Assembly (NCBI GenBank): GCA_036630325.1
Contig: CP142731.1
Location: 1,116,001-1,180,000, forward strand
Length of the DNA: 64,000 nt
From: Vairimorpha necatrix
Lineage: Eukaryota
Reading direction: 5' to 3'
Every line of letters begins with the position of its first letter. The stretch's first letter is position 1. Below the pieces are notes generated by a model. That model had not been told where the DNA came from and did no database searches. It saw nothing but the letters and a program-made list of their open reading frames with translations. Below are positions 2,326-46,675 of this stretch, piece by piece. The position numbers and the translations under genes were made by a program.

Positions 2326-2374
2326 TGTGATATATTTGTATAATTTCTATCCCCCATTATGATAAATAAAGACA
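2326..2374 (+). repeat. 5' LTR of copy A (49 bp)
   Basis: TGTGATATATTTGTATAATTTCTATCCCCCATTATGATAAATAAAGACA, identical to 5496-5544. Confidence 0.95.
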
Positions 2375-5300
2375 TGGGGGCGATACCGAATCGTCAGTTT
2401 ACAAGTGTGGACTGTGGTCTAGAGGCCAAAAAGTTAATAAAGGAAGTTAGAAGAATAATGTATAGGTTGGAGATGGAGGAAGTAGAAATCAGTTTGTGGA
2501 AGCAGAGAATATTTATGGAAGGAAGTGAAAAAATAAAAAATTTCATGGTAGAAAGAATTAGTAAAGAGGACGAATATTATAAAATAATTGAGAAATTAGA
2601 GGAGGAAATATGTAGAGAAGAAAGAACTAAAAAAGAAGAAGAAAATAGGAGAGAACTTATGGAGGTCATAGCTGAGAATGTTAGAGAAACTGTGAGAAAA
2701 GAAATTCAAGAGAAAGATTTAGTTTTAAGGAATACAGTACAAGAAATAAGAAATAATAGGAATTGTTTTAATTGTGGTAAATTTGGCCATATGGCTAGGA
2801 ACTGCTATTTAGGAAGGAACAATAATCAGAAAAATAATAAAAAGTTTAATAAGTACTTAAATTTAGACGAAAACCAAAGTTGTAGTAGCAGTAATGATAA
2901 TAAAGAATATAAACCAAGTGGAAAGACAAAACGAGTTAAGTTAAAGGAATGTAATAATAGTGATAGAAGACATAAAGAAAGAATATATGCGAGCAATAAA
3001 GAGACGAAAAGAAGATTACTGAAGAGGGAATTTACGTTGGAAGATCTCAAAGCGGAATATGAAGAAGTTTTTAAACAAGGAGATGAGGTTATAAGTTATT
3101 GTACATTAGAGAAGTGTAAGATAGATACTCCAGAGGGTAAGAAGATAGTCAGAAAGGGACAGACGATCCCACAGGCTTTGATCAAACAGACTGAGGAATA
3201 TATTAATGATTTAGAAAATAGAAAAATTATAAGAAGATGTCTTCGGAATGGAGAAACCCAATAAGAGCGATACTTAAACCAAGTGGTGAAGTAAGAGTAG
3301 TTAGTAATTTTATAGGGTTGAATGATTTAGTCGAGAAAGACCCGTATGAGCTAACGAATATGAAAGAAATAATAAGAGCTACGCAAGGGTCGATAATATT
3401 TACTGTTGTTGATTGCAAAGAAGCATTTTACCATTTTGAAATCGAAGAAAAAGATAAACATAAGACGGCGTTTGAATTTAATAAAAAAGTTTACGAATGG
3501 AATAGTATGGTGATGGGATACAAAAATTCCCCACAGATACTACAGCGAACGATGAATAAGATTTTTGAAGATTTGCGAGGAAATGGTGTTGATGTATACA
3601 TGGACGATATAGTAATACATGCCAACAATAAACGTAAACACGATGAATTAGTAATAGAGGTTTTAGAAAGAATTAAGAGAAATAAAATGAAATTAAATAT
3701 TGGGAAAATACAGTTTAGATAAGCGGAAGTAAAATTATTAGGTGTGACGCTGAATGGAATAGACATGACGGCCGACGAAATAAAGAAAAACGAAGCCTTG
3801 GAGTATCCGGATCCAAAAACTTTGACTGAATTGAGGAGGTTTCTAGGATTGACTGGATGGTTCAGACCATTTATAAAAGATTATGCCGGGCTGACGTTGA
3901 AAATGACAGATAGTTTGAAGAAAAATGGCAATTCGTGGAAATTTACGGAAGAGATGAAAGAGGAATTTACTAAAATGAAAAATGTGTTAAGAAATATGGG
4001 AAGACTAAGGTTACCGGACTATAATAAGGAGTTCATACTAAGAACAGACGCTAGCAATTTGAGATTGGGTGCGGTGTTACTTCAGAAGAATGAGAATGGG
4101 GAATGGGTTGCTATACAATGGGCATCTAAAAAGCTAACACCTACCGAAATAAGATATGGAATACCAGAAAAGGAAATGCTTGCGATATATTGGGGCATTG
4201 ATAAATTTAAATACGAGTTAAGAGGTAGGAGATTCAAGATAGAAACGGATCACAAAGCACTGGTGGAGATAAGAAATAAACCGTTTTTCAATAATAACAG
4301 AATAAATCGTTTAATCGAGAAGATACAGGAATATGATTTTATCGTTGAATATAAAAAACCTGATGAGATGGTGGTAGCAGATGCGTTGAGTCGAATAAAT
4401 ATGGAAGAGGATATTAAAGAAATGAAAAATAAAGAGCGAACAATCAAGCAAACAGAAGGTAAATGGAAAGCACATGTTTCTTCCGAGAATGGAAAGCAAT
4501 ATTGGCAATTTGACTCAGGACGTAAAGTTGAAATACCACCTGAGAATATAAGGAGACAATTAATCCAAGAATATCATGAAAAAGTAGGCCACAGATGCAT
4601 GACAAGTGTTTATTATGCAATGAGAGAAGAATACTATTGGCCAGGAGTAAAGAAAGAAATAAACGAGGTTATAAAACAGTGTCAGAAATGTCAGATATAT
4701 AACAGGAAAAATATGGGTGGTTGTGAATTTGTAGATACGTCGAGATACTTAAAGAAGGTTGCATTAGATTTGATAGACTTTAGAAATGAGAAGAAATATG
4801 TTTTAGTTGCTATCGATTATTTTACACGTAGAGTATGGGGAGTAGTTATAAATAACAAGTCAAGTAATAATGTTGTTGGATTTTTGAAAAGATTATGTGA
4901 GCAAGGGAAGAAACCAGAAGAAATTATTACAGATAACGGGAAAGAGTTTATTAACGTGGAATTTAGAAAATTTTGTAGAGATCTCGATATAATACACCGA
5001 CAAGTAAGTATAGAAGCGCATAGAAGTAACGGAAGAGTAGAGCGTGTTATAGGAACTTTGAGAGAAAGTATTTTAAAGTCGGATGCGAAAACTTTTGAAG
5101 GTAAAGTGTATAAAAGTATCGATATATATAATCAGAGCTATCATACGGGAATAAAATGTACACCATTAGAAGCGACTGAAGATAAAACTGGAGACGTAAT
5201 GCTTGAAAATAGCCCTATAGGGAAATATTGTAATAGGTTTGGAAAGGGAAAGATCGAAAAATTTAATAAAGGTCAATTGGTAAGAATAGCTAAACGAGAA

Positions 5301-5471
5301 AATTTAGCAGGTATTAATAAGTATGAAAAAGGAAGATTTTTGGATACAGGAAAAATTGTTGAAAAGTGTGGAAAGGATTCTTATATTGTAAAACTTAGTA
5401 ATGGTAGGCCTGTGAAGAAGAGACATTATGACCTGAAGGGTATGCTTGGGGTAGATGTGAAAATTAGATGA
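2359..5471 (+). pseudogene. gag-pol of copy A (CCHC knuckle, RT YMDD, RNase H TDAS, integrase HHCC/DDE), disrupted
   Basis: Three ORF pieces (2359-3264, 3237-3722, 3744-5471) are collinear with the intact ORF of copy B. There is a frameshift near 3237 and an in-frame TAA at 3720-3722 where copy B has Gln. Confidence 0.9.
2375..2392 (+). promoter_or_regulatory. Primer binding site, tRNA-Pro-like
   Basis: TGGGGGCGATACCGAATC lies directly after the LTR. The TGG-G-GGC start resembles known tRNA-Pro PBSs, and the first 13 nt are identical in copy B. The tRNA identity is inferred. Confidence 0.75.
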
Positions 5472-5495
5472 GACTAACCGTCTTGAGGGGGGGGA

Positions 5496-5544
5496 TGTGA
5501 TATATTTGTATAATTTCTATCCCCCATTATGATAAATAAAGACA
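5496..5544 (+). repeat. 3' LTR of copy A (49 bp)
   Basis: Exact repeat of 2326-2374, preceded by the PPT and followed by the TSD TGATA. Confidence 0.95.
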
Positions 5545-26766: not shown

Positions 26767-27753
26767 ATGCATTTTCTCTTTAATTTTATAAAGTGTACAC
26801 AATATAAATACGACGAAAACATTGTAGAAAATGTCATTATGCAAAAATCCGAAGATCACTTGAACTTTTTTACAACAAACGAAAATTCCAATCTTATTTA
26901 TAATTTTGATAAAAATTTATCAAGTCAAAATTTAGAGCATTTTGACTATGACTGTGATGATCCAACCTATTTAAAAAAAGATGTATTATTAGGGCAAAAG
27001 CTGAATGATGATCGTACTATTAAAAATCAATCTAACCAAAGTATTGGCGAGGTTTTTTTAAATATGGATTTAGAAACTGGAGAACTAGAAGAACTTTTTT
27101 GTTTTGAAACGAATATAAATCAATTAGAAGAGAGCAATACTTTAACGAACAATGAAAACATCAATCCATTTGCAAAATTATTAGAATGTAAAATCCAAAT
27201 AAAAAATTTTATAGAACGACAAAGATTAATATTAAGTAAAAAATCACAAGCTTATCCTATAATTAGAATGACTCCTGAAAAAGAAGCTCTTATTCGGAAT
27301 TACAATCGATTAATATATTGTTTCAAAAAAGATTTTATTTATAATTTAAACAATAGAAAACTGACAAAATTAAGTAAAATAATAAAAAATATAAATGTAT
27401 CTGATGAAACAAAGAAAATCATTATAGAGTTTTTAGATGTATTTAAATTATTTGTTTCGGCTTATGATAAGAGAAAAAACTTTTTACAACGCAAATTTTT
27501 AATTATAAAAAATTTGGTAGAAATAATTCGTTACAATATAGAGATAATGTCAATATTTAATTATATACCAATAATTGAAACTTTTGAAAATATTGATAAA
27601 CATGTAAGATTAAAAGAATATGAAAGTGACAAAAACAAAGAAGAAGTAATATCTATTTTAAATTCTATCAAAACTTCGTTGCACATTTTATGTGATAAAT
27701 CGTGCGAAATAAAAAAAGTCTATGAGAAATGCATTGAAATACTTTTAGAATAA
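26767..27753 (+). CDS. Expanded lineage-specific family ('DLET' family) member 1, putative secreted (328 aa)
   Basis: CCCCTAAAATG start; motifs DLET..LEE.F.FE, FKKDFIYNL, IRYNIEIMSIFNYIPII and YEKCIE are shared with the other copies. Confidence 0.88.
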   Translation: MHFLFNFIKCTQYKYDENIVENVIMQKSEDHLNFFTTNENSNLIYNFDKNLSSQNLEHFDYDCDDPTYLKKDVLLGQKLNDDRTIKNQSNQSIGEVFLNMDLETGELEELFCFETNINQLEESNTLTNNENINPFAKLLECKIQIKNFIERQRLILSKKSQAYPIIRMTPEKEALIRNYNRLIYCFKKDFIYNLNNRKLTKLSKIIKNINVSDETKKIIIEFLDVFKLFVSAYDKRKNFLQRKFLIIKNLVEIIRYNIEIMSIFNYIPIIETFENIDKHVRLKEYESDKNKEEVISILNSIKTSLHILCDKSCEIKKVYEKCIEILLE

Positions 27754-29751
27754 CATGTTTTATACAACTCCATTAAATGTTGTAATCATAGAAAGAAATT
27801 TAACGTGATTAAATTATTTATTTTATTTTAAGAGTACGGAAAAATATAAAAAATACAACAATCATTTAATGGCATATGTTTTCAAACCAGATATAAGAAC
27901 TAGGATAAAATAAGGATCTCTGAAAACATTGATTAAATTATTTTTACAATAATTGATACTACTAGAAATGTAAAAAGACATAGCGTATGTTAGAGTTAAA
28001 GGAATCTAATTTAAGTTAATGATGGGATGCAAATACATCACAATCCTGAGCAGAATATCAGAATAGCTTTTTTTCTAGTTTCTTTTCTCAGGTTGTGATT
28101 TTTCTACAAATCATAAGAACGACAACAAAAAGATTGTTCGAAAATTACTGATATATGCTTGGTATCAGGTCTGAAAAAAAAAACTTCTAAAAGTTTTCGA
28201 TGGATAAATATGTCAGATAAACATAAGACATTTTAAAAATGTCTTATTTTATTTGTTATAGTATTAAAAGGCTTTTTTAAATATTTTTATTTAGTGATAA
28301 TAACCAACTAAGATAAATATAATAAAATTGAAAAAAAAACTAATTTAAGAGTTATAAAAATATTTTATCGCCCATATCTTGTATATTTAACTAAATTATA
28401 TTTTTAAAAACGATTTAGCCATATATTTATAGATGGGACAAGTTTATGAAATTTGATGACGTTGATACCTTAGGAATTTCAAAAAATTTCTTGTTCATCC
28501 GCTCACGCTCTTTTTAAATTATCTGAAGATAAAAATACTCAAAAAAAATTTTTGAAACCAAAAAGCATATTACAAATAGCATACAAAAAAAATTCTCATG
28601 TTTTTACAAAATAAATTTCCTTTTATGAAATCGAACCCCAAAAATTATCATCTTCAAATTAAAAACTGAACCCCGATTGTCCCGTTAATTTTATAAAATT
28701 TATGCAGAAAAATAACGAAAAAGTGTACACATATAAATGGATGACGCTGGAATGAACAAAAACTTATCTGTAACTTTTATATAATATATAAAGACATGAC
28801 AGTCAACGTGTTAATTGTAAAATTTAGCGACTTTTTCATTCTTCGTTTATAAAAAATTTTTAATTACTACATATAAATTCATTAAAAACTTAATTATAAA
28901 ACAAGGCCAGATCGACTCCACTATTGTCATATATATTTTCCGAATAGTAATCACATCTATTAATAATAAATCCAAGAATTATATAAAAAATAAGAAATTT
29001 ACAATAATAAATAAAATTTCTGTTGTACTTTTCTTGTTTAATAAATTAAAACTTGAGACATGTTTTTTTTTCACAAAAATTTATATTTAGCCAATTATTA
29101 ATCTTAATTGTTTGTTCATATTTTTTTTCAAAGCATTAAACTTTTTTGAGTCTTTGATAAAAATAAATTTTGCCTTTTTTTATATTGTTTTATTTTTATA
29201 CTTAAAAAAAGATTCATTTACGTAACTATCAAATAAATTTTTCTAAGAATACTAGAAAAATTAAACTTTGTTTTAAAAAAACTAGTAAATCTGAGGTTTT
29301 TTTTATTTGTACAAAAAAAAATAAAAAATTGACATGTTTTACAAAAATAATAAAATTTTTGATGATTCCACTAAATCAAGCAAATATAAAGTAATTAATA
29401 TTAAATTTTTTATCCCATTTACCCTTTTTGACTGATTTTTATATCAAATTTTACCTCTTGTAGAATTAAGTTTGTCAATTAGGAATTAGTTTAAAGTAAT
29501 ACTGGGTTCTATACGTCATGAACAAAGTTGTTGTGGAATCCCCCTCAAAATAAATTCAAAAAAAATATTTTTTGAATACTTTTTGTGTTTAATAGTTTAA
29601 TAAATCCAAATATTATGTAATACAATTAATAAATTAATAAATATATTTCGCTCCCTTTAAAACTCTAAATATATGATAAACGCCATTTTGGGCTAATTTA
29701 ACTCCATATACTCGAAAAAATATTTATAAATTTTTTTTTATCGCCCCTAAA

Positions 29752-30823
29752 ATGATTTTTATATTTATATTTTTACTTTGTACGCAATTTGATGTCGATG
29801 AAAAAGATAAAGAGAATAAAAATAGGGAATATACGTTAAAAATTGTAGCAACTTAAGAGGATAAAATGCATGATTACGTGGATTACAATGAAAATTTTAT
29901 ATATAAAGTTAAAGAGTATAATGAACATGAAATTTTTGGTCCGAAGGACTTGAAAAATGAAATTATTATTAATAAAAAAACTCAAAATGACATTTTTTTA
30001 CAAGATGAAACACAAAGTAATTGTGATGATCCAGTCAAAAATCTTGATTTAGAAACAAGTGATTTAAAAAAAATTCATTGGTTTGAAGAGGACATAGACC
30101 AATTGCAAGAGAGTAATACCGCAAATGATAGACCAATTGAGACTTCTGAACGAAAATTGCTGAAAGAATTAAAAAACGAAATAGAAAAATTTAGGAAAGA
30201 GAGGATATTTAATTTAGTTACAGAAAAAGGACCGCGTAATAAAAATATTGTGAATAAAAAAACAAAAGGGCTCATAAAAAAAAAGAATTGTGACATTCTC
30301 GAGTTCAAAAAAGATTTTATATACAACTTGAAGAATAAAGAATTAAAGAAACTGCGCAAATTGATTTTACACGCCTATATTCCTGCCGATGTTAAGATCG
30401 TACTTTTAGAAATTATTGAAGTTTTTAAATCTTTCATTGGGGGTTACAAAAATAGAAAAAATCTTTTAACCAAAAAAAAAAATAAACAGGACAAACATGG
30501 TACTTATGATACGTTTTAATATAGAAATAATGTCCATTTTTGATTATATACCAATATTTGAAATTTTTTCTAAAATAAGAGATATAATTATCCAAAGAAA
30601 TTATGAAAATCACACAATCAAACACAACGTAGTCAAATTTTTTATTAAGATTTTTAAACATTTACAAGAATTGCATAAAAAGTCAAAAGATATAATAAAA
30701 ACATATGAGGAATGTATTGAGCTATATGAGAAAAAAACAGATATTATAAATAGAAATATACAAAAAAACTTTAACACATCAAGATTCTTTTATTTTAGAC
30801 TAGACAATGCCTATCTGTTTTAA
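29752..30823 (+). pseudogene. DLET family member 2, disrupted
   Basis: CCCCTAAAATG start; TAA at 29854-29856 where the paralog has GAA; frameshift around the A11 run at 30472-30482. Confidence 0.85.
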
Positions 30824-31389
30824 AGACGGGATTTATATATTTTTAGATATGTTACTCTTTTATTTTATTAGTTTCTATTTTGGAATTGTGAAATGTAAAA
30901 GAAGAAATTATGTTGAAAAAAAATAAAATATTTCTCAAGATGTCAATAGTAGCGAATTATGTAAAAAACGGTTATTATTGCCGTGTCGAGTTAGTCTCGG
31001 GACAATAATTAGTGAACTTGTTAGAAGAAGGTGAATTTTGAGTTAATAGTTTATTACTCTTTGTACCCTTCTTAGGGTATTTTGCTTATTTACTTTTACT
31101 AGGCGTTTCCTTCTAATTAAAGCATTTTTACGGAAAATAAGTAGAACTAAAGTCTTAGAAAAATGTGTAAAACACACAATTGTAACATGTTATTTGGAAT
31201 TCCCTAAGACGATAAATATCTCATTCGTTCCAAACAAATACAGAATTCATTATTACTGGAAATTCTTAGAGTCACGTAGGTTTACCACATGACAGGTTTT
31301 CTATGTTTTTTAAAAAGCACTAAACCTACTTTGACTTTTCTAAGAAATAAAATTTGCATTATGCTTGAGAAATGTTTTATTTGAATAAT

Positions 31390-31690
31390 TAAGTGGTATT
31401 ATTTACCATATTATTTTTATCCCTCCGAATGAATTTTTTAGATTAAATTTTACTATAACTTTTTCTGTTTATTTTATCCTAATTAAAATGTCTAGAAAAG
31501 CAGAGGAGTACAAGCAACAGCAAGACAAATCACTGTTTCCTTTGAGGAGGGAAAATAATCCTCACGGAGGCTACTACAATAAAACTAATATAATTAAACA
31601 CAATATTCTAGCACCGAGAGAAGCATCATAGAATGCTATCTGAGGAATGAATAACTGCCGGGCAATGCCTCAAAATTAAACAAAGATTTG
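31390..31690 (+). repeat. Decayed homolog of the solo LTR at 44610-44920
   Basis: Shares GTGGTATTATTTACCA, TCCCTCC.A.TGAATTTT and GAGAAGCAT....GAATGCTAT with the reverse complement of 44610-44920. Confidence 0.7.
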
Positions 31691-32183
31691 TTTGATCATC
31701 TATCAAAATCTATTTTTTAGTGAATAAAAAAAATTTTACTAAATGAAAAACTTGTAAATCTGAGTTTTGATCATTGTATAATTTGAACAAATTAAAAAAA
31801 TAATAAATTTTTGATGTTTCGCAAACAGCAAAATTAAAAAAATTGATTATTCATTTTTTTAACTCTTTTTTATTAATTATCTTTTTAAATTTACATAGAC
31901 TAAAATTAAATTTGTCAATTAGGAGTTTCTTTCAGAAAGAATTTGTTTTTACTCTATTAAACAGAGTTTTTTTAGAACAAACCACAAAATTAATTTAAAA
32001 AATATTTCTATATAATATGAATATGCTTTTTATTTATATAAATAAAAATTTAATGGTATACAACATCTATATTATAAAAAAGGATTGCATTCTTAAAAAA
32101 TTTTTAAAATATTATTATTGCCATTTAGAGCTAATTATGGCCGATACCCTCGAAAAGTTATTTGGATTTTTTACGCCCCTAAA

Positions 32184-33179
32184 ATGATTTTTAATTTGTT
32201 ATTTTTATTTTGTACGGAAGTTGATGTCAATAATAAAGATAATAAAAATAGAGAATACACGTCAGAATTTGTAACAATTGAAGAGGATAAAATGTTTGAT
32301 TACGTTGATTACAATGAAAATCTATCTTATAAAACTAATGAGTGTAATGAATATGAGAATAGTGTTCCGATGGAATTGAGAAATGATATACTTTTAAATC
32401 AAAATTCACTTCATACCATCTTTTTACAAGATACAACACAAAGCAATTGTGATTATATAGTTTTAAGTGTTGATTTAGAAACAAGCGATTTAGAAGAAAT
32501 TTATCAGTTTGAGATGGACATAGACCAATCGCAAGAGAGTATTATGACAACAAATATTCACTGTGAAACTTCTGAACAATTTTTGCTAGCAGAATTAAAA
32601 AAGAAAATTGAAGAATTTATAAAACAGAAAAAATTTGAATTAGACAAAAAAAATGCACCGCTTGAAAAAATTTATCTGAATGAAAAAGCACAAAAGCTTG
32701 TAAAAAATTATAACGACACAATACTTGAGTTTAAAAAAAATTTTACTTACAGATTGAAAAAATTAAAATTGAATAAACTGCGCGAAATAATCGCTTACTC
32801 GAAAATTCCTGCTGATGTTAAGACCGTACTTCATAAAATTATTGAAGTTTTTAAACTTTTAATTAAGAGTTACGACAATAGGAAAAATTTTATAACTTTT
32901 AAAAATATAACAAATCAAAAAATGATACTTATGCTACGTAATAATATAGAAATTATGTCCATATTAAATTATATACCAATATTAAAAACTTTTAAAGAAA
33001 TAAAAGAGAAAACATTGCTAAGAAATTATGACACTATAGAAATTGAAAACAAAATAAAAGATTTTTACGAAAATCTTTTTATATATTTACAGGAATTGTA
33101 TAATAAGTCAGTAGAAATAATAGAAACATATGAAAAATGTATTATTTTATATGAAAAAAAAACCAGATATAATAACTAG
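32184..33179 (+). CDS. DLET family member 3, putative secreted (331 aa)
   Basis: CCCCTAAAATG start at 32184 (the track start is TTG); MIFNLLFLFCT hydrophobic N-terminus; close paralog of member 2. Confidence 0.88.
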   Translation: MIFNLLFLFCTEVDVNNKDNKNREYTSEFVTIEEDKMFDYVDYNENLSYKTNECNEYENSVPMELRNDILLNQNSLHTIFLQDTTQSNCDYIVLSVDLETSDLEEIYQFEMDIDQSQESIMTTNIHCETSEQFLLAELKKKIEEFIKQKKFELDKKNAPLEKIYLNEKAQKLVKNYNDTILEFKKNFTYRLKKLKLNKLREIIAYSKIPADVKTVLHKIIEVFKLLIKSYDNRKNFITFKNITNQKMILMLRNNIEIMSILNYIPILKTFKEIKEKTLLRNYDTIEIENKIKDFYENLFIYLQELYNKSVEIIETYEKCIILYEKKTRYNN

Positions 33180-35688: not shown

Positions 35689-38600
35689 TGTATTTATTTA
35701 TCATAATGGGGGTAAAAATTATCAAAATATATAACATCCCCCCTCCAAGACGGTTAGTCTCACTTTATCCTTAACCCAAGCAGACTTTTTAGATCATAGT
35801 GCCTTTTCTTTACATATCTTCCATTTACTAACTTAACTATATAAGAATCATTGCCACATCTCTCTATAATTTTCCCACTCTCTAAAAACCTACCTTTCGA
35901 ATATTTATCCGCACCTTTCAAGTTTTCCTTCTTAGCTACTCTCACGTACTCACCTACTTTAAATTTTTCCCTTTTCCCCCTGTTAAACAGTTTTCCATAT
36001 TTCCCTTGTGGGCTATTTTCAATCATTACATGTCCAGTTTTATCCTCTGTCGCTTCTATTGGTGTACATTTTAGTGCCGTGTGGTAACTCATATTATATT
36101 TTTCAATGCTTCCCATGACCTTCTCTGCAAATGTACCTTCTTTAGTCTTCAGAATGCTCTCTCGCAGCGTACCTATAACCCTCTCGACTCTGCCATTACT
36201 CCTGTGTGATTCGACACTTACTTTCCTATGTTTAATTTCTAGTCTGTTACACAACTCTCTAAACCCCTCATTGATAAATTCTCGCCCATTATCCGTTATA
36301 ATCTCTTCGGGCTTTTTTCCTTGTTCACACAACTTACTTAAAAATTCTGTCACATTCTTTCCAGTCTTGTTCTCCATTACCGTGCCCCATACTCTTCGAG
36401 TGTAATAATCTATCGCAACCAATACGTATTTACCTGCGTCTCTAAAATCAATGAGATCCAAAGCAACCTTTTCTAAATAACGTGTAGTATCTACAAACTC
36501 ACATCCACCGAGTCTTTTTCTATTATATATTTGACATTGTACACACTTTCGAATTGTCTCATTTATGTCTTTCTTTATTCCGGGCCAATAAAATCTTTCC
36601 CGCATCGCGTAATATACACTTGTCATACATCTATGTCCAACTTTTTCGTGGTATTCCTGCATCAAACTTTCCCTTGACTCTTCTGGTGGTATCTCGACTT
36701 TCCGTCCTGAATCAAATCTCCAATATTTTTTTCCTTCTGCGTCATCGACGTGCGCTTTCCATTTGCCCTCTATCTGCTTGGCGGTCCTTTCTCTGATTTT
36801 CTTTTTCCTTTCATCGTCTTCCATATGTATCCTGCTTAACGCGTCAGCCACCACCATTTCTTCTGGTTTCTTATATTCTATGGTGAAGTCAAATTCCTGG
36901 ATCTTTTCAATCCATCTATTTATTCTATTGTTATTAAAACACGGTTTATTTCTAATCTCAACCAAGGCTTTATGGTCCGTCTCGATTTTAAACTTCCTAC
37001 CGCGCAACTCGTATTCAAATCTTTTTATCCCCCAAAATACCGCGTACATTTCTTTCTCCGATATAGTATATCTGGTCTCTGTAGGTGTTAACTTTTTTGA
37101 ACTCCATTGGATTGCTACCCATTCATCTTTATCGTTCTTCTGAAGTAACACGGCTCCTATCCCTACATTGCTCGCGTCCGTTCTCAATATAAATTCCTTC
37201 CTATAATCAGGCAATCTAAGTTTCCCCATCGCTCTCAAAACTTCTTTCAGCTCTAAAAACTCTCTATTCATTTCAACCGTCCATTCCCACTTCTTATCTT
37301 TACCTCTCAAGCTATCTGTCAGATGAATAGTTAATCCCGCGTAATTCTTTATAAAGTTCCTAAACCATCCTGTCATTCCTAGGAATCTTCGTGTTTCACT
37401 TACACTTGTCGGCTGCGGGAATTCTAACGCCTCGTTCTTCTTTATTTCATTCGCTTCAATATCTGTACCATTCAATGTGACTCCTAAGAGCTTAACTAAC
37501 TGTTGGCTAAACTGTATCTTCTCAATATTCAATCTCATTTTATGTCTTTTTAATCTTTCCAATGCTTCTATAACTAGCTTGTCATGCCTTCTTTTAGTTC
37601 TAGCGTGTATAACGATGTCGTCCATATATACCTCCACTCCTTCTCCTTGTAAATCTTCAAATATTTGGTTCATTATTCGTTGTAATATCTGCGGGGAATT
37701 TTTATATCCCATTACCATACTGTTCCATTCATATACCTTTCTGTTAAATTCAAAGGCCGTTTTGTGCTTATCCTCTTCTTCAATCTCTACGTGGTAAAAG
37801 CCTTCCTTCAGATCTATAACGGTAAACCATTTAGACCCCTGTGTGGCTCTAACGATGTCCCTAATATTTGACAACTCATACGGATCTTTTTCAACTAAGT
37901 CATTTAAACTCATTAGATTACTTACAAGCCTTACTCCTCCGTTAGGTTTTACTATAGCTCTAATTGGGTTTCTCCACTCGGATGTTGATCTTCTTATAAT
38001 CTTTCTTTCTTCCAAACTTTTTATATATTTTTCAGTTTTTTCCATCAACGCCTGTGGGATAGTTTGTCCTCTTTTAACTACTTTTTTTCCTGGTGGCGTC
38101 TCAATTTTACATTTCTCTATCTTACAGTGTACGATCTCTTCGTGCTGCAAGTCAAAAATTTCTCTAAACTTCGCTTTTATATCTTCAATGACAAGGCCCT
38201 CTTCTATTCTATCCTCTCTCATTCCTCTCCTTTTTGAATTTTGTTTACGTTTTGCTTCTCCGCATTTCCTATATTCTTGTGCGCTAAGTTCTGTGCTTGT
38301 TGATCCACTCTCTTCATGAACCCTTAAATACTTGTTAAAATGTTTATTTTTATTATCTTCTTCTTTCCTCTTCCTTACGAAGCAATCTCTTGCCATGTGC
38401 CCGAATCTACCACAGTAAAAACAATCTCTACTTCTTACTCTCGTAGTTTCTTCCCTTATTTTTCCTAATGCTCCTCTATTTGCCAGCTCCTCTCGAACTG
38501 TTCCTCTAACCGACTCTGCAATTATTTCCATCATCTTACTTTTGTCTTCTTCTTCCTTCTTTTTTAATTCGTCCTTTCTAACCTCCTTTTCCATTTCTTC

Positions 38601-38863
38601 AATAATTAAGGACCAACTATCTTCTTTTTTAATTCTTTCTACCATAAAGTTCTTTACTTCTTCCGAACCCATTTCATAAATTCTTGCCTTCCATAGAGAC
38701 TCATCTACTCCATCCAACTCTAGCTTATAAACTATTCTTTTAATTTCTTGTAACATTATTCTGGCCTCTTGACCACAGCCATCACTTGTTGACTCTCGAT
38801 TTGGTATCGCCCCCATGTATTTATTTATCATAATGGGGGTAAAAATTATCAAAATATATAACA
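35689..38863 (-). mobile_element. Ty3/gypsy LTR retrotransposon, miniature protease-less type, copy B (3175 bp; intact)
   Basis: Identical 48-bp LTRs at 35689-35736 and 38816-38863; TSD TAAGT at 35684-35688 and 38864-38868; PBS TGGGGGCGATACCAAATC at 38798-38815; PPT GGAGGGGGGA at 35737-35746. Confidence 0.98.
35760..38831 (-). CDS. Single gag-pol polyprotein (1023 aa): short gag, CCHC knuckle, RT, RNase H, integrase
   Basis: CFYCGRFGHMARDC; IDLKEGFYH and YMDD; TDAS and ADALSR; H-x4-H..CxxC; ALDLID, ITDNG and RVERV. The start is placed at the CCCCCATTATG shared with copy A. Confidence 0.95.
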   Translation of the reverse strand: MINKYMGAIPNRESTSDGCGQEARIMLQEIKRIVYKLELDGVDESLWKARIYEMGSEEVKNFMVERIKKEDSWSLIIEEMEKEVRKDELKKKEEEDKSKMMEIIAESVRGTVREELANRGALGKIREETTRVRSRDCFYCGRFGHMARDCFVRKRKEEDNKNKHFNKYLRVHEESGSTSTELSAQEYRKCGEAKRKQNSKRRGMREDRIEEGLVIEDIKAKFREIFDLQHEEIVHCKIEKCKIETPPGKKVVKRGQTIPQALMEKTEKYIKSLEERKIIRRSTSEWRNPIRAIVKPNGGVRLVSNLMSLNDLVEKDPYELSNIRDIVRATQGSKWFTVIDLKEGFYHVEIEEEDKHKTAFEFNRKVYEWNSMVMGYKNSPQILQRIMNQIFEDLQGEGVEVYMDDIVIHARTKRRHDKLVIEALERLKRHKMRLNIEKIQFSQQLVKLLGVTLNGTDIEANEIKKNEALEFPQPTSVSETRRFLGMTGWFRNFIKNYAGLTIHLTDSLRGKDKKWEWTVEMNREFLELKEVLRAMGKLRLPDYRKEFILRTDASNVGIGAVLLQKNDKDEWVAIQWSSKKLTPTETRYTISEKEMYAVFWGIKRFEYELRGRKFKIETDHKALVEIRNKPCFNNNRINRWIEKIQEFDFTIEYKKPEEMVVADALSRIHMEDDERKKKIRERTAKQIEGKWKAHVDDAEGKKYWRFDSGRKVEIPPEESRESLMQEYHEKVGHRCMTSVYYAMRERFYWPGIKKDINETIRKCVQCQIYNRKRLGGCEFVDTTRYLEKVALDLIDFRDAGKYVLVAIDYYTRRVWGTVMENKTGKNVTEFLSKLCEQGKKPEEIITDNGREFINEGFRELCNRLEIKHRKVSVESHRSNGRVERVIGTLRESILKTKEGTFAEKVMGSIEKYNMSYHTALKCTPIEATEDKTGHVMIENSPQGKYGKLFNRGKREKFKVGEYVRVAKKENLKGADKYSKGRFLESGKIIERCGNDSYIVKLVNGRYVKKRHYDLKSLLGLRIK

Positions 38864-39729: not shown

Positions 39730-40724
39730 ATGATTTTTATGCTGAATTTTTACGTTCTTTACAATTAAATAATAATAAAAACATCACGAAGTTGTAAACA
39801 ACTACAAATCCATGTACGCCACTTTTGTACCTGTAACGACTGAAAGACAGAACAAGTACAAACATAATATTAATTCTAAAGAAAGATTACTACAAAAAAA
39901 TATTGAGTGTTCTAATTTTGACAAATACCTTAAAAATCCGGCCATCTTAAAAAAAGATGTATTTTTTTGTCAAAGTCCAACTCAATACTCTATTTTACAT
40001 CATCAAATAACTGCTACGATAATATCATAGCTAAAACCTTTGATTTGGGCATAGACAAACCAGAAGAAATCTAATGATTTGAAATGGATATTGACTAATC
40101 TCAAGAAGACAGTGTCAACAAATACACAAATCTAAACTTCTGAACGAAAATTTTTCATAAAACATAGGAAAATATAATTAAACACTAATCCAATACCAAG
40201 TAAAAAAAAAAGATTAGTTTAAACAAAAAAAGATAATTTTGAATTATAATAAGTTATTTGCAAATTTTAGAAATAATGCATTTATAGGCTTAAGAAAGAT
40301 TTTTTGCCTATTAAACTTGAACTTATGCACATAATGGATGCAACAAATGATATTAAATATATAATCAAAGAATTTATTTATATATTTTAATTGTTTATAA
40401 AAGTGCATGAAATGAGAGAGAAAATTCCATATACAAATCTATAGCTTTAGAAGATATACTTAACACAATTCGTAACGATATAGAAATAATGTCTATATGT
40501 ATTATACTTCATATTAAAACTTTAATTGAAATAAAAAAAAGACATGTATTGAAAAAATATAAAAATCTTACAACAATTGAAAAAATATAAAAATCTTACA
40601 ACAATTGAAAAAATAATAATTGTACTTAATCCCATCATAGAGAATTTACAAAACCATTTAAGAAATCAATAAATTAAGAAAAATGTATAAAGAGTGTTTC
40701 GAGATACTCAAAAACGTTAAATAA
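39730..40724 (+). pseudogene. DLET family pseudogene (closest to 43766-44596)
   Basis: CCTAAAATG start; DLGIDKPEEI**FEMDID, TIRNDIEIMSI and YKECFE are present with many stops; internal tandem duplication of about 28 bp at 40549-40610. Confidence 0.8.
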
Positions 40725-40829
40725 TCATAAATTACAAAAGAAATATTCTTTTTTGAATAACACTAAAAATATTTTGTATTTATATAAAAAGAGATAATGA
40801 GTTAAATAGTCATTAGTCTTAAATAGTTA

Positions 40830-41085
40830 AAGCACAGGTTTCCTCGGTATCGCTCATAAGATTTGGCTCTTCGCAGACTTTGGTTTCTGTGGTTTTATCA
40901 TGTTTTCAACTCCAACTTTTCAGTTTAATTTTCATTTATTAACACCGCCTCTTTAACAGTCGCCGTTCGTTAGTCGCTTACAGCTCTAGCCCGTTCTTCC
41001 TCTCCTACATTCTCCTGATCGTACCCTCGTCGTCGTTTGAAAAAAGAGATAGACTCTTGAGTCTTCTTCAGCACAATAGACTAGT
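40830..41085 (-). mobile_element. 3' fragment of an RLE-type non-LTR retrotransposon
   Basis: Homologous to 57300-57555 (CAGACTTTGGTTTCTGTGG, CCTGATCGTA.CCTCGTCGTCGTT). Confidence 0.85.
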
Positions 41086-41199
41086 TGTTTGCTTGAAGGT
41101 TGTTTTGTATTTGTAAAATTTAAAATTATTTATAATTTTATTTTTTATTTGCGGCACGGGTATTTTGAAACCTTACATATGAATTAGTGAAGTTTGGGT

Positions 41200-41750: not shown

Positions 41751-43765
41751 ATATATCAACTTAATACTTGTCATGTAGTTTTCATCATATAAATTGTTAA
41801 GCTACCATAAAAATCAATAACTTTTAGGTCTGAGCTCGAGCTCGGGCATGCAAAATAAACATTTCTGCTCTTGCCCTCGGAATACGAAAATACATAAATT
41901 TTTACTCAAAATTAAATATAAGAACATTTATATAATAAAAATACGTATTTATAAAAAGGCATTTTTAAAGCTCTTTTTGTTATAAGATCTAAATATAAAA
42001 AAGGTTTCAGCTAAGGTTCATTATAAAATAATCATTCAATAAATATATTATGAGTAGTTTAGGTTTTTTGGCTATGTAAGTATATGTTAAAAGTTTCTTC
42101 GAAAATACTTACATATCTTAGCGAAACACAATAACATTAATTTAAGATCGTTTAAACTTTAATATCAACATTTGATTTAGTTATAAATATTTCTTATTTT
42201 CATAATGGCAAATCTAAATACATGAACTTTAAATAATTAAATGTTCTTTTCAGAAAAAAAAAATTAAACTACTATCCGTAATAGCTTTTTTTTGATATGA
42301 TATGTAAATAAACAATTAAGCATATTAATTTAACCAAAGAAATAAATTTATGTGCATCATATATAACCGACGTAAATCCCTAAGTTTTCGGTCCGCAGTA
42401 CTTTTAGTACTTATTAACACCGATATTTTCCTCCGCAGATAAGTATTGCCTTTATAATACAAAGATAACCTAACCAAGGCCTTTTGCAAGAGTTTAAAAT
42501 GAATAATAACCCTAATAATATTGGATATGCCGATAATTATGTTGTGTATGTCGCGTTTTTTTAATTATAAACTAAGCAACTACATGCAAAAAAAAAATTA
42601 TGTTAACATCAAATCAAAGAACTTAAAATTAAACGAAAAGTAAGATTAATACAATAAATATTCTTATAATTGATAGTGAGTAATATATATTCGACTGTAC
42701 TTAATGAAAAAATACATATAATTATGATTTATTTGTATGCCCTTCAACTTATTTTTGTGAATAAATAAAATTATAAAAAAAGCTAAATTTCAGAATTATG
42801 AAAATTTATTTAATCTTTTGCTCATAATTTGTTTTCGACTTCTTCTTTATAAAAGATTTTGTTTTTATCAGCAATACAATGTGTAATATCAGTAACTAAA
42901 AAAAAAAAATTTAAAGGTAACCTTTTGACTTAAAAATCCTGTTTAACATGTTAGAGCCCGTTGTTTGTATTATTTTCTCGTTATGGTCAACGTAACTCAC
43001 CTTTAAAATGTAAATATAAATAGAAAACAATACAAAGTCTTTTTTTCGAAACAACCTTATACAACAAACTAAAATAAATCGTTTTTATTCTTTTATAATT
43101 TTTTCCTTAAAAAAGTTATCAACCAACAATTGCTATACCTAAGTTAAAAAATTTACAACCTAATCGCACTATTAGTTTTAAGTAATTTACAAAAAAGTAA
43201 AGTTTAAAGTAGGGGAACTGCCGTGATCAGGACAATTTCCGTCACTCATATATGTGACATGGAAGTCAACGTGTTAATACCATTATTAGCATATTTAACT
43301 AACAAGAACAAGGTACGTTTACAAAAATTAAAACATCATCAAACATGATCAAATAAACATCTAGGAATCATATATGGTGGGATAAAACAAAATATGAATA
43401 GATTAATAAGTAATTTAAAAAAGAGTGTCAACATATACATTAAAAGGTATATGTAAACAAGCTTTCAAATGTCCATTGATGCATATGTCTAATATATATA
43501 TAACGAGAAATATTTAAATATACTTAGAAAAAGATAACAAATACTACAAAAGGTAACATGATAAGTTTAATGCTCATGATTCATGTTAGCTGGATTAAAG
43601 TATTTATCAAAGAATATATGTCTAATAAAAAAACTACTTTAATCTATTGTAAAAAATATATCATTGTCTGCTGTTGTAGCCGATCTAAATAATGATCAAT
43701 CATATTTTTTAAAATAAATAAATTTGATTGGAAACTAAAATTTCATAATTTTTTTATAGGTGGGG

Positions 43766-44596
43766 ATGGAAAATATCAATAAAATTATTAACAGTGATTT
43801 TCAAATCATCTTAAAAAGCGATGTATTTTTTTATCAAAGTTCAACACACGATACTATTACGCAGGATCAAAATATCTATTACGACAATGACATAATTAAA
43901 AATGTCGATTTGGGCATAGATAAACCAGAAGAAATCTTTTGGTTTGAAATGGACATAGATAAATTACAAAAAAGCAATCTGACAACAAGTAAACAAATCA
44001 AGGCCGAAAGTTTAAAGGTATTAATGGAATGTAAAAATAAGATTAAAAAAATTATAAACGAGACTGAATTAAAATTTAACAACGAATCAAGACCAAGTAG
44101 AAAAAATAAATTAGATCGTAGTAAAAAGCAGAAAATTGTCGATTCTAATAAATTTTTTTCGGGGTTCAGAAATAATTACATTTATAGACTTAAGAAAATA
44201 TATTTGCCCAGAACATGCAGACTTATAGATATCATTGATGTATCAAATAATGTTAAGAATATAATTAAAGAATTTGTAAATATATTTAAATTTTTAATAA
44301 CAGTACATGAGAAGAGAGAAAAAATTACGCATAACAGAAATATAACATTAGAAAATATTCTTAATACAGTGCATTACAATATAAAGTTAATGTCTATATA
44401 TGATGACAAACAAATAATTGAAACATTAAGTAAAATAAAAGAAGATTTAAACCAACAAAATTACAAAAATTACTCAATCAAAGAAGAGATAATAATTTTG
44501 CTAAATTCAATAATTAATAACTTACATATCTTATTTGATAAATCGAAAAAATTAAAAGAAATATATGAAGAGTGTATTGAATCATTAAACAAATAA
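43766..44596 (+). CDS. DLET family member, N-terminally truncated (276 aa, no hydrophobic leader)
   Basis: VDLGIDKPEEIFWFEMDID, HYNIKLMSI and YEECIE motifs; ATG preceded by GGGG. It may be a truncated pseudogene. Confidence 0.7.
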   Translation: MENINKIINSDFQIILKSDVFFYQSSTHDTITQDQNIYYDNDIIKNVDLGIDKPEEIFWFEMDIDKLQKSNLTTSKQIKAESLKVLMECKNKIKKIINETELKFNNESRPSRKNKLDRSKKQKIVDSNKFFSGFRNNYIYRLKKIYLPRTCRLIDIIDVSNNVKNIIKEFVNIFKFLITVHEKREKITHNRNITLENILNTVHYNIKLMSIYDDKQIIETLSKIKEDLNQQNYKNYSIKEEIIILLNSIINNLHILFDKSKKLKEIYEECIESLNK

Positions 44597-44609
44597 TAAA
44601 AATACATAT

Positions 44610-44920
44610 TGTGGTGTTTCCACCAGGGAGATGGCCATAATGTAAATAGCATTCAAGAATGCTTCTCCCTGCAATATTGTAAAGTATATTTTTATTTAAG
44701 TTATGTTTATTAAATTGCCCCTGTGGGCTTTCATAGTTCCTCATGTGAGGGGGTAGGGTGTAAGATACCCTCCCGTTATCGTTGTAGACTCTCTGTTCTC
44801 TTCTCATCTAAAAATCGATGGGTCAAAATAAAAGAAAATATTTATAGCAAAATATTTTCTAGAAAATTCACTTGGAGGGAAAATGAAATAAAAATAAGTA
44901 ATGTGGTAAATAATACCACA
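44610..44920 (-). mobile_element. Solo LTR (311 bp) of another LTR-retrotransposon family
   Basis: TGTGGT..ACCACA termini; exact 5-bp TSD CATAT at 44605-44609 and 44921-44925; terminal hairpin TGTGGTA-TTATT-TACCACA; homolog at about 31.4-31.7 kb. Confidence 0.88.
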
Positions 44921-45066
44921 CATATGATTCCGAAATAATTTTCTTTATTACACACTCTAAAAAATAGATTTTTTATTGTGAAGTATATTCTATAAATTTT
45001 TATTAGGTCTGTCAATAAGTTTATTTATATTTTCTATCCCCTCTTTTGAAAATGTTTTTAAATAAA

Positions 45067-45130
45067 TTGTAGCAGATCAAATCTGTCCATTTGTAAGAAT
45101 ATGATTGGCCAGTATTTGATCGCTACGACA
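45067..45130. repeat. About 63-bp self-inverted dispersed repeat (micro-MITE-like); other copies at about 43672-43733 and 60155-60210
   Basis: Termini TGTAGCAGATCAAAT and ATTTGATCGCTACG; the core GTAGC(C)GATC(T)AAATA.TG...AATCATATT is shared by three loci. Confidence 0.75.
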
Positions 45131-45470
45131 AGGTTTATAGCCCAAATTGTATATTATCACATTAATAATAAAAGCATCTACGTATTGAATAAAAAAGCAT
45201 GTAAAAAACAATGTTTTCCTATATGTAAATGTGTAAAATTACTTAAGCGAGTCAGTATTGTAAATAAGACATTGTAAACCACCATCATATAGAATTTATG
45301 AGTCCTAAAAGATAAATTTGCTATAAGTTTTCACAAAATATTTTTTCAACCATTTTATCACAAAAACATAATATTAAGTTAGCTTTTTTTAATATCAACA
45401 AAACTAAGTTACTAGTAGAAAATAAATTTTAGGAACATAGGAGTTTCTTTGAGATAATTTATCATTAAGA

Positions 45471-46675
45471 CTAGATATTCATAGCACTTTTCCCCCGGTA
45501 TCGGCAATGAAATTCAGCTCTTCACAGACTTTGGTTTCTGTGGAATTATTAATACTTTCCAACTTCACTTTTTCAGCTTCATTTTTCTTTACCGACACCA
45601 CTTCTTTAACAGTCGCCATATTCACTAGTGTGCTTACAGCTCTAACCACTTATTCTCCTGCATCCTCCTGATCGTATCCTCGTCGTCGTTCCAAAAAGAT
45701 GGACTCTAGAGTCTTCTTCATAACAATAGACTGGATATATGCTTCAAGGTAGGGTTGGATTTCCAGCCCTGTGTACTTTCTGTGATATTTGGTCACCACT
45801 CCATTCCTTGTCATTACTAAAGAACTATTATGTTCCAGGATTATGTATTAGTCCCAGTTCATTTGCAAGATGGTCATATTTTCTTAGTTTTTCATTCAAA
45901 ACTATAATAAGTCGACCTTAGTGGTTCTACCAGCTTCAACTATTAAAATTTCTTTCTTCTCCTTGTAAACACAAGAATATCAGGCTTATTATGAGTCACC
46001 TTTTGATTTTATGATATCCTCGTATCTACTCTTATTTCCGCACGATCATTTTCTATGATTTCCTGATTGAGTGTCCACGTATTTTCTTTGTCTTCTCAAC
46101 CCCATATTTAATACATAGTAAAAGATGAATGCATCTAACTACCTCGTTGTGTCTTTTCATATAATCAAAACCCAACATTCGATCACACTTGGTAGCTAAA
46201 TGATCCACGGTCTTCCTATGAGATCCACAATGGGACATTGTCTCTCTTGTCCACATCAGATATTTCTAACCTGTAGGAAGCAGTAAATTGCTTCGGATCT
46301 AGCCCGATTGTTTCCTTTAACCAGACAGGTAGAAGAGTCCCCATGCTTACTAAATCGTTACCCCTAGCTTTAAACAACTTTCCATGATTTGTACTTATTT
46401 AAATTTTGTTGTAAAGCGCTTATTTTTGGGATTCTATCAGCATCTTCAAGGTAATCTCTCCTACAAAGCTATACCTAATCCTTAGACACTCGTTAATTGT
46501 AAACATGTGGGATTTGCTCTCTGCCTCTACCTTAAGTATCGCTTCCCGTTATAGTGAGCTATAATTAGACTCATCTAATGTTTTATAAATAGTCAGAAGC
46601 ATACTTTCGCATCTATCTTTGATACTTTTGAGGCCTTTACCCAGTTTTGATCTAGGTAGGTATAGTCTTTCCTGC
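45471..46675 (-). mobile_element. 5'-truncated, degenerate RLE-type (R2/R4-group) non-LTR retrotransposon
   Basis: ERLYLPRSKLGKGL, CCHC knuckle (CGSHRKTVDHLATKC), KRHNEVV, NKPDIL and EKLRKY restriction-like endonuclease motifs, with frameshifts. Confidence 0.9.

Follow-up and report, generated by a model that had tools for sequence, protein, structure and literature searches.

A solo LTR and the Gag frame that crosses it

The 64,000-nt stretch of Vairimorpha necatrix DNA analyzed here (the window; contig CP142731.1, 1,116,001-1,180,000, in an AT-rich assembly of 15.0 Mb and 12 contigs) carries at 44610-44920 a young solo long terminal repeat (LTR) of a Ty3/gypsy retrotransposon lineage; coordinates without a contig name are positions in the window. 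The original prediction of a 311-bp solo LTR bounded by a target-site duplication (TSD), with CCC shortly before an ATG at 44807 and 66 open codons running to the LTR end, was borne out in each of these parts, CATAT being present on both sides (Table 1). Two 2,063-bp elements located outside the window carry LTRs with 98.4-99.4% identity to this LTR, which had at least 43 genome matches. Since its TSD is intact, it presumably arose by LTR-LTR recombination, and its source was probably an element of the 2-kb gag-only type. The open reading frame (ORF) starting at 44807 extends past the LTR to a TAA at 44516-44514, giving 97 aa in total, and a Pfam search of this ORF found no family.

As a test set beforehand, the original prediction required that the LTR ORF of full-length copies share the reading frame of gag. 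Five two-LTR copies of 2.04-2.06 kb formed the test set. The LTR ORF ran unbroken into an ORF of 534-539 aa in four of them, and the fifth had a stop 14 codons past the LTR. At the level of sequence, these comparisons establish the ORF at 44610 as the real N-terminus of a predicted Gag protein. The family also has 4.27-kb gag-pol members, in one of which (L036) the order protease, reverse transcriptase (RT), RNase H, integrase was read; Pfam gave the same order in another member of the lineage (L100). Elements of the lineage have direct TG..CA LTRs, TSDs of 4-6 bp and a polypurine tract. With these features, this pol order and a Gag of capsid fold, the 44610 family belongs to Ty3/gypsy (Metaviridae). 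The ORF tail of the 2-kb elements is a decayed in-frame integrase remnant, so that these elements derive from a 4.27-kb partner by internal deletion. We rejected the idea that this tail is an inverted pol piece producing antisense RNA, as it has the sense and frame of integrase.

An AlphaFold model of Gag residues 1-329, built from 56 sequences, had a predicted local distance difference test score of 81 and a confident helix at residues 50-57, within the LTR-encoded part. Residues of about 95-281 aligned with retro capsid domains in VIA-align, where the top 28 rows were all retro capsid (Z 6.0-9.1); the best Z of 9.1 was shared by the PEG10 and MOAP1 capsid domains (root-mean-square deviation 2.4 and 3.0, with 85 and 96 aligned). 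No structural match to the LTR-encoded helix came out of this search, which was run with the whole model and not with the helix by itself. A homologous-protein search with the 539-aa protein gave no match, and scans of viral and metagenome contigs found no relative. Gag relatives were named from Nosema granulosis, Vairimorpha apis, Edhazardia aedis and Pancytospora epiphaga.

Several subfamilies of young non-autonomous elements of 2.0-2.3 kb have one long ORF (about 530-560 aa) made of Gag and a decayed in-frame pol remnant (G000:C2:623690-625753 (L031), C6:650781-652843, C7:673699-675749, C5:735667-737708; L038 (724-), L135 and L134), and a 553-aa protein of V. apis (P0004) looks similarly built. 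A long basic tail on Gag may have been selected for in such elements, the protein being a putative helper or restriction factor. A subfamily with 305-bp LTRs (L007-L011) resembles the window LTR in its 5' part and the L023 subfamily in its 3' part, and appears to be a recombinant in which the frame was kept.

The original prediction also expected codon-level conservation across LTR copies, and this was found in a 16-codon motif, GRSILECYLHYGHLPG. Among nine subfamily copies, the proportions of synonymous (pS) and nonsynonymous (pN) differences were 0.44 and 0.13, giving a pN/pS of 0.29, compared with 0.31 in the gag core (120 codons, four subfamilies). Column shuffling gave a median of 0.78, and none of 500 shuffles was as low as the motif. 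The +1 and +2 frames gave 3.54 and 0.85, both with stops, and changes were concentrated at third codon positions (19, vs 7 and 8 at the other two). This pattern shows protein-level selection on the motif. Open heads of the subfamilies had 47, 62, 64, 65, 66 and 68 codons. The peptide motif [IL][IL]E.Y...G occurred at the LTR 3' end in every listed family of the palindrome-bearing lineage described below, including families whose LTR DNA is unrelated. It was also present near the N-terminus of 17 of 133 library proteins, some of which resemble families of the same genome.

The RNA of the LTR tail folds better than shuffles (z -2.4 and -3.5), and the two sides of the stem change together between subfamilies. 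Because protein selection and better-than-shuffle folding coincide, the tail is probably doubly used, as protein code and as RNA structure. The folding would also suit an alternative in which the conserved tail is RNA structure alone (a U5 stem, a terminal hairpin and the integrase end), the frame is a by-product and Gag begins at an ATG just past the LTR, as the ATG at +0 in family B would allow. We regard this as highly unlikely. Against it stand the third-position excess and the pS of the motif, the persistence of the peptide motif where the LTR DNA is unrelated, and the lack of a nearby downstream ATG in other families; in several families, the first 335-392 nt past the LTR contain no in-frame ATG.

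Coding LTRs across the genome and around the locus

A total of 90 loci were examined: two from the window, eight from an LTR search, 40 chosen by pol or gag similarity to the family, and 40 top RVT_1 hits with long open frames. They yielded 78 elements, as ten loci had no TSD-bounded pair, one was a duplicate, two were boundary miscalls that were dropped (L116 and L164) and one held two elements. In 72 of the 78 TSD-bounded elements, the 5' LTR held an in-frame ATG whose frame continued unbroken into gag, in line with the claim that coding LTRs recur across families. In one of the 72 (L167), the ATG shares merely the last base of the LTR; the six exceptions are broken near the junction. Read backward from the LTR end, the gag frame stayed open farthest in 30 of 32 LTR types, which is beyond chance. 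AATAAA lay in the coding head in 27 of these types (6.3 expected), and in 26 an in-LTR ATG had CCC or GGG no more than 25 nt away (several ATGs per LTR allowed), compared with 13.6% of all ATGs in the window.

CCC also preceded nine of ten host start codons checked. In Encephalitozoon cuniculi, rapid amplification of cDNA ends (RACE) gave 5' untranslated regions (UTRs) shorter than 7 nt, and the CCC motif has been described for microsporidia (PMC2803860). Short host 5' UTRs as the cause of coding LTRs are consistent with the CCC/GGG enrichment and the E. cuniculi RACE data, which fit this explanation without proving it.

The same layout had been claimed for the miniature elements of the window and for the LTR at 60949, and in-frame ATGs inside the LTR were found in all of them. 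In the two elements with 49- and 48-bp LTRs, the ATG lies 16 nt inside the LTR, behind CCCCC. These LTRs are identical at both ends of each element and hold a promoter motif, ATG and AATAAA; their tRNA-Pro(agg) match at the primer-binding site (PBS) spans 13 nt. In the 60861 element, 61021 may be the start in use, because a sister family keeps only the second ATG in frame. An earlier delimitation of this LTR as 130 bp with a Tf1-like hairpin was rejected in favor of 227 bp with a tRNA-Leu-type PBS. A strong inverted repeat within the 227-bp LTR (60949-60995) begins at its first in-frame ATG. The copy at 31.4-31.7 kb, taken by the original prediction as a decayed homolog retaining coding remnants, is a true homologue of the 44610 LTR (76% over 96 nt, E 8e-13) and encodes RSIIECYL. 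However, the peptide is out of frame with the ATG of that copy and is followed by a stop, so that the copy is a broken remnant.

Several points weigh against the best explanation of the locus, which is set out below. All DNA evidence comes from one genome, and loci were chosen by similarity or long open frames, so that the counts describe intact elements rather than all copies. The 16-codon window was picked after its conservation had been seen, and its pN/pS values are uncorrected; the first 45 codons are weakly constrained, with a pN/pS of 0.85 that is uncorrected, saturated and includes one frameshifted head. A Pfam search of the 539-aa protein found no family, and the structural matches are middling (best Foldseek E 0.033). 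Family B has a second in-frame ATG directly after the LTR, and its LTR head could therefore be optional.

Solo LTRs had further been proposed to act as portable promoter-plus-N-terminus cassettes, with the 44610 ORF running antisense into the 3' end of the neighboring gene. As anatomy, this description holds. Promoter motifs, ATG and open frame are all kept in the 44610 LTR, and the 97-aa minus-strand ORF overlaps the final 83 nt of the plus-strand ORF 43766-44596. One further solo LTR of the family (L041; G000:C9:51008-51312; L009/L041) is inserted in an ORF of a host paralogue family, in frame with its downstream half for 83 codons, and poly(A) read-through has been reported in E. cuniculi (PMC2803860). 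That solo LTRs are working cassettes, with 44610 regulating its neighbor by antisense or making a 97-aa protein, is nevertheless unlikely in our judgment. Read-through past 13 TSD-bounded solo copies was 6, 6, 6, 6, 3, 4, 4, 19, 31, 35, 37, 48 and 83 codons, the four values of 6 coming from near-identical flanks. Against random window positions (median 9 codons), the probability was 0.15 for 31 codons or more and 0.06 for 83 or more, so the antisense read-through at 44610 is within chance. None of the 13 copies formed an intact chimeric gene, the L041 fusion not being a whole gene since the host frame stops after 83 codons. In addition, AATAAA sits within the coding head, and the ~99% identity to element LTRs means that the intactness of the 44610 copy reflects youth and needs no selection.

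Around the solo LTR, the 43766 ORF belongs to a dispersed host paralogue family with ORFs of ~330 aa (26767-33179, about 39900-40700 and 43766-44596); the one member tested against Pfam had no match. The 43766 member has no counterpart of the N-terminal part present in others, and the member at 29866-30823 is split. Copies of a dispersed ~120-bp repeat with 73-79% identity (43672-43794, 45009-45130 and 60154-60242) flank the 43766 ORF and the solo LTR on both sides in inverted orientation, and perhaps form a small family resembling miniature inverted-repeat transposable elements. Multi-copy fragments with high depth in run X1 lie at 40764-41115, 45419-46500 and 57235-57801; an ORF at 57289 resembles the C-terminal end of a non-LTR retrotransposon protein. 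In the sequencing run compared with the window, no piece extended across the insertion site of the solo LTR. Elsewhere in the genome, four solo LTRs ~40 kb apart share flanks and TSD (G000:C2 674346, 719508, 758747 and 800530; L013-L015 and L017), reflecting segmental or tandem duplication.

Table 1 Features of the solo LTR at 44610-44920, its neighbor and related elements in the window
Feature	Position	Strand	Remarks
Solo LTR, 311 bp	44610..44920	-	termini TGTGGT...ACCACA; TG..CA type
TSD CATAT, left	44605..44609		
TSD CATAT, right	44921..44925		
U3/promoter (putative function)	44820..44920	-	TATA-like and host-type CCC; motif as in PMC2803860
TATA-like TATAAATA	44846-44839	-	
Host-type CCC	44822-44820	-	12 nt upstream of ATG 44807
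Gag N-terminus, 66 codons (putative R-U5 region)	44610..44807	-	in frame with gag of full-length copies
Conserved 16-codon motif GRSILECYLHYGHLPG	44622..44669	-	predicted helix, residues 50-57; predicted RNA stem overlaid
Two AATAAA hexamers, candidate poly(A) signals	44691..44711	-	within coding head
Chance read-through, 31 codons and stop	44514..44609	-	antisense to 3' end of neighboring ORF
Neighboring host ORF, 276 aa	43766..44596	+	one of the paralogue family in the window; without Pfam match; ORF unbroken by the LTR
Decayed homologous solo LTR	31390..31672 (ends approximate)	+	head frameshifted; stop after motif
Ty3/gypsy element, 49-bp LTRs	2326..5544	+	in-LTR ATG 2359; PBS matches tRNA-Pro(agg)
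Ty3/gypsy element, 48-bp LTRs	35689..38863	-	in-LTR ATG 38831; PBS matches tRNA-Pro(agg)
5' LTR, 227 bp, of 4,009-bp element	60861..61087	+	tRNA-Leu(taa)-type PBS; in-frame ATGs 60949 and 61021

Palindromes at the expected position of the primer site

The original prediction assumed a PBS downstream of the LTR, which proved wrong for the 44610 lineage, where a palindrome occupies that place. Perfect palindromes of 12-14 nt (24 nt in one element), centered 5 or 7 nt past the LTR, were found in 38 of the 78 elements, the 44610 family included. A PBS starting with TGG, 0-3 nt after the 5' LTR, was present in 39 elements and in none of the 38 with palindromes, and one element was broken at the site. 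The TGG sites matched 3' ends of tRNA-Ser, Leu, Ala, Arg or Pro of the same genome over up to 11-14 nt. At the palindromes, no tRNA 3' end match was found, the best matches to genome tRNAs being scattered and 6-9 nt long. The set compared did not include tRNA-Val, His, Tyr and three Leu isoacceptors, and one of these may prime from an internal region.

In a quick IQ-TREE phylogeny of pol (36 non-redundant rows, rooted at the midpoint only), the 14 palindrome rows made up one side of a branch with a Shimodaira-Hasegawa-like approximate likelihood ratio support of 100. Across 13 palindrome junctions (11 distinct), 93.5% of cells paired and five of seven pairs had two-sided changes, exceeding all shuffles and slid controls, although shared ancestry inflates these counts and they do not represent independent events. 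The four central bases were always self-complementary (AATT, AGCT or ATAT), and the palindrome was kept across a change of reading frame (F-E-F vs L-N-S). Homodimer energies of 18 palindrome junctions were -15 to -34 kcal/mol (z -1.0 to -6.7), compared with z of -1.0 to +1.7 in 21 other junctions. In other species, for which proteins only were compared, 16 of the 17 motif-bearing proteins read by eye show [LM]-[NSI]-S past the motif, residues that such a palindrome encodes; three of these proteins are named from N. granulosis or V. apis, and the Pancytospora protein has no trace of them. No Tf1-type complement was found at the predicted transcript start, itself placed by inference, and the best complement elsewhere in the element was 6-8 nt. 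A GalEa-type second complementary copy (CHSeq2), with up to one mismatch, was absent from all three loci searched.

Two readings of the palindrome were weighed. It may prime reverse transcription without a tRNA: two packaged RNAs would pair, RNase H would cleave one of them where the duplex ends on its 3' side, as in Tf1, and extension would proceed from the resulting 3' end, which lies paired beside the partner's U5. Self-complementarity would in addition regenerate the site at second-strand transfer. We give this close to an even chance. The palindrome occupies the position that defines the right end of the LTR, its self-complementary central bases are not needed by a simple hairpin loop, homodimer z-scores extend lower than at other junctions, and no 3' end in the tRNA set compared matches it, in contrast to the sites of the other lineages. 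On the other side stand the kinship of the sequences behind the covariation, the incomplete tRNA set and the purely sequence-based nature of the argument. Alternatively, the palindrome may serve only as a dimerization or protein-binding site, in which case a protein, a fragment of a tRNA or an unrecognised host RNA would act as primer. Palindromic dimer sites have been proposed in Ty1 and retroviruses (PMC5454406), and FunCo1 uses internal regions of tRNAs for its primer sites (PMC5445492). However, a fixed host RNA cannot pair with centers that vary among AATT, AGCT and ATAT, and the scattered tRNA matches are short; we consider this reading a serious possibility, somewhat below an even chance.

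For the locus as a whole, the best explanation, which we hold to be likely, is that 44610 is a recent solo LTR relic whose ORF is the real Gag N-terminus, located in a translated R-U5 (the repeat and unique 5' regions) behind a host-type promoter. Transcription would start from this promoter in U3 (the unique 3' region), a few bases before the in-LTR ATG. Every LTR transcript needs R and U5 upstream of its primer site; with a start just before the first AUG, R-U5 would therefore be translated. In this way, an extension of Gag containing a conserved helix may have become encoded in R-U5, which in addition accommodates the poly(A) signal and an RNA stem. The solo copy would be a passive relic: its transcripts would meet their own AATAAA or else reach the stop that follows 31 chance codons. 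Among full-length relatives, the frame passes through the palindrome of 12-14 nt found instead of a tRNA site; the likeliest use of the palindrome may be the pairing of two packaged genome RNAs, one strand being cut to give the primer, with about even chances.

More tentatively, and not quite as an even bet, we propose that near-leaderless host mRNAs forced a protein-coding R-U5 on every microsporidian Ty3/gypsy lineage, and that one ancient lineage swapped tRNA priming for a translated palindrome, two genome RNAs priming each other as a third route beside tRNA and Tf1-type priming. If so, the near absence of host 5' leaders reshaped the anatomy of a whole retrotransposon superfamily, with LTRs as short as 48 bp combining a promoter and a start codon with a poly(A) signal, RNA structure and protein code. 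For annotation, starting gag past the LTR truncates these proteins, and solo LTRs yield spurious short ORFs.

Comparison with known systems

A gag start within the LTR is already known from Ty1, and a palindrome replacing the PBS from GalEa copia elements; neither was found described for microsporidian Ty3/gypsy elements. Our literature search, incomplete for subscription papers, returned no description of a coding LTR or a palindromic primer site in the latter. Three microsporidia-specific Ty3/gypsy groups with a single polyprotein ORF have been reported, and the main text of that study contains no occurrence of "PBS" or "primer" (PMC4202319). The V. necatrix elements resemble these groups in being Ty3/gypsy with a single polyprotein ORF.

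Like TR-GAG-type plant elements, the 2-kb elements are short and LTR-bounded, with gag but no RT. TR-GAG-type elements are non-autonomous and have kept gag, RT being absent; the 2-kb elements differ in their in-frame decayed integrase remnant and in being deleted from a 4.27-kb partner.

In the self-priming of Tf1 from Schizosaccharomyces pombe, the cut is made by RNase H. Tf1 and the palindrome lineage are both Ty3/gypsy and both use their own RNA as primer without a tRNA, which for the V. necatrix lineage is a proposal. The PBS of Tf1 is complementary to the first bases of its mRNA and is not palindromic (PMC5445492), whereas the V. necatrix lineage has no such complement at its predicted transcript start.

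The fungal GalEa elements (Ty1/copia) lack a tRNA PBS and carry a Conserved Hairpin Site. This is a palindromic sequence at the junction with the LTR; it may include the last A of the LTR, and its mechanism is described as unknown (PMC5445492; PMC6934838). In the V. necatrix lineage, too, a palindrome lies at this junction where the PBS would be expected. However, GalEa has the copia domain order and a CHSeq2 12-41 bp downstream, whereas the V. necatrix lineage does not have the copia order and its palindrome of 12-14 nt is translated. The palindrome lineage offers a testable case for the question raised by GalEa, namely how reverse transcription starts in LTR elements without a tRNA site.

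The closest likeness in coding layout is with Ty1 of Saccharomyces cerevisiae (Ty1/copia), whose RNA has a 53-nt 5' UTR and a PBS at nt 95-104, inside GAG (PMC5454406). In both, gag starts within R-U5, the frame runs through the primer site, and coding and RNA signals overlap; about 14 codons of Ty1 gag lie in R-U5, so every Ty1 solo LTR also carries a start codon. The V. necatrix elements, however, are Ty3/gypsy and not relatives of Ty1, and the 44610 lineage has no tRNA site. The part of gag within their LTRs extends to 66 codons and includes a conserved helix, their leader is probably near zero, and the layout occurs in all V. necatrix lineages sampled, including those with 48-bp LTRs.
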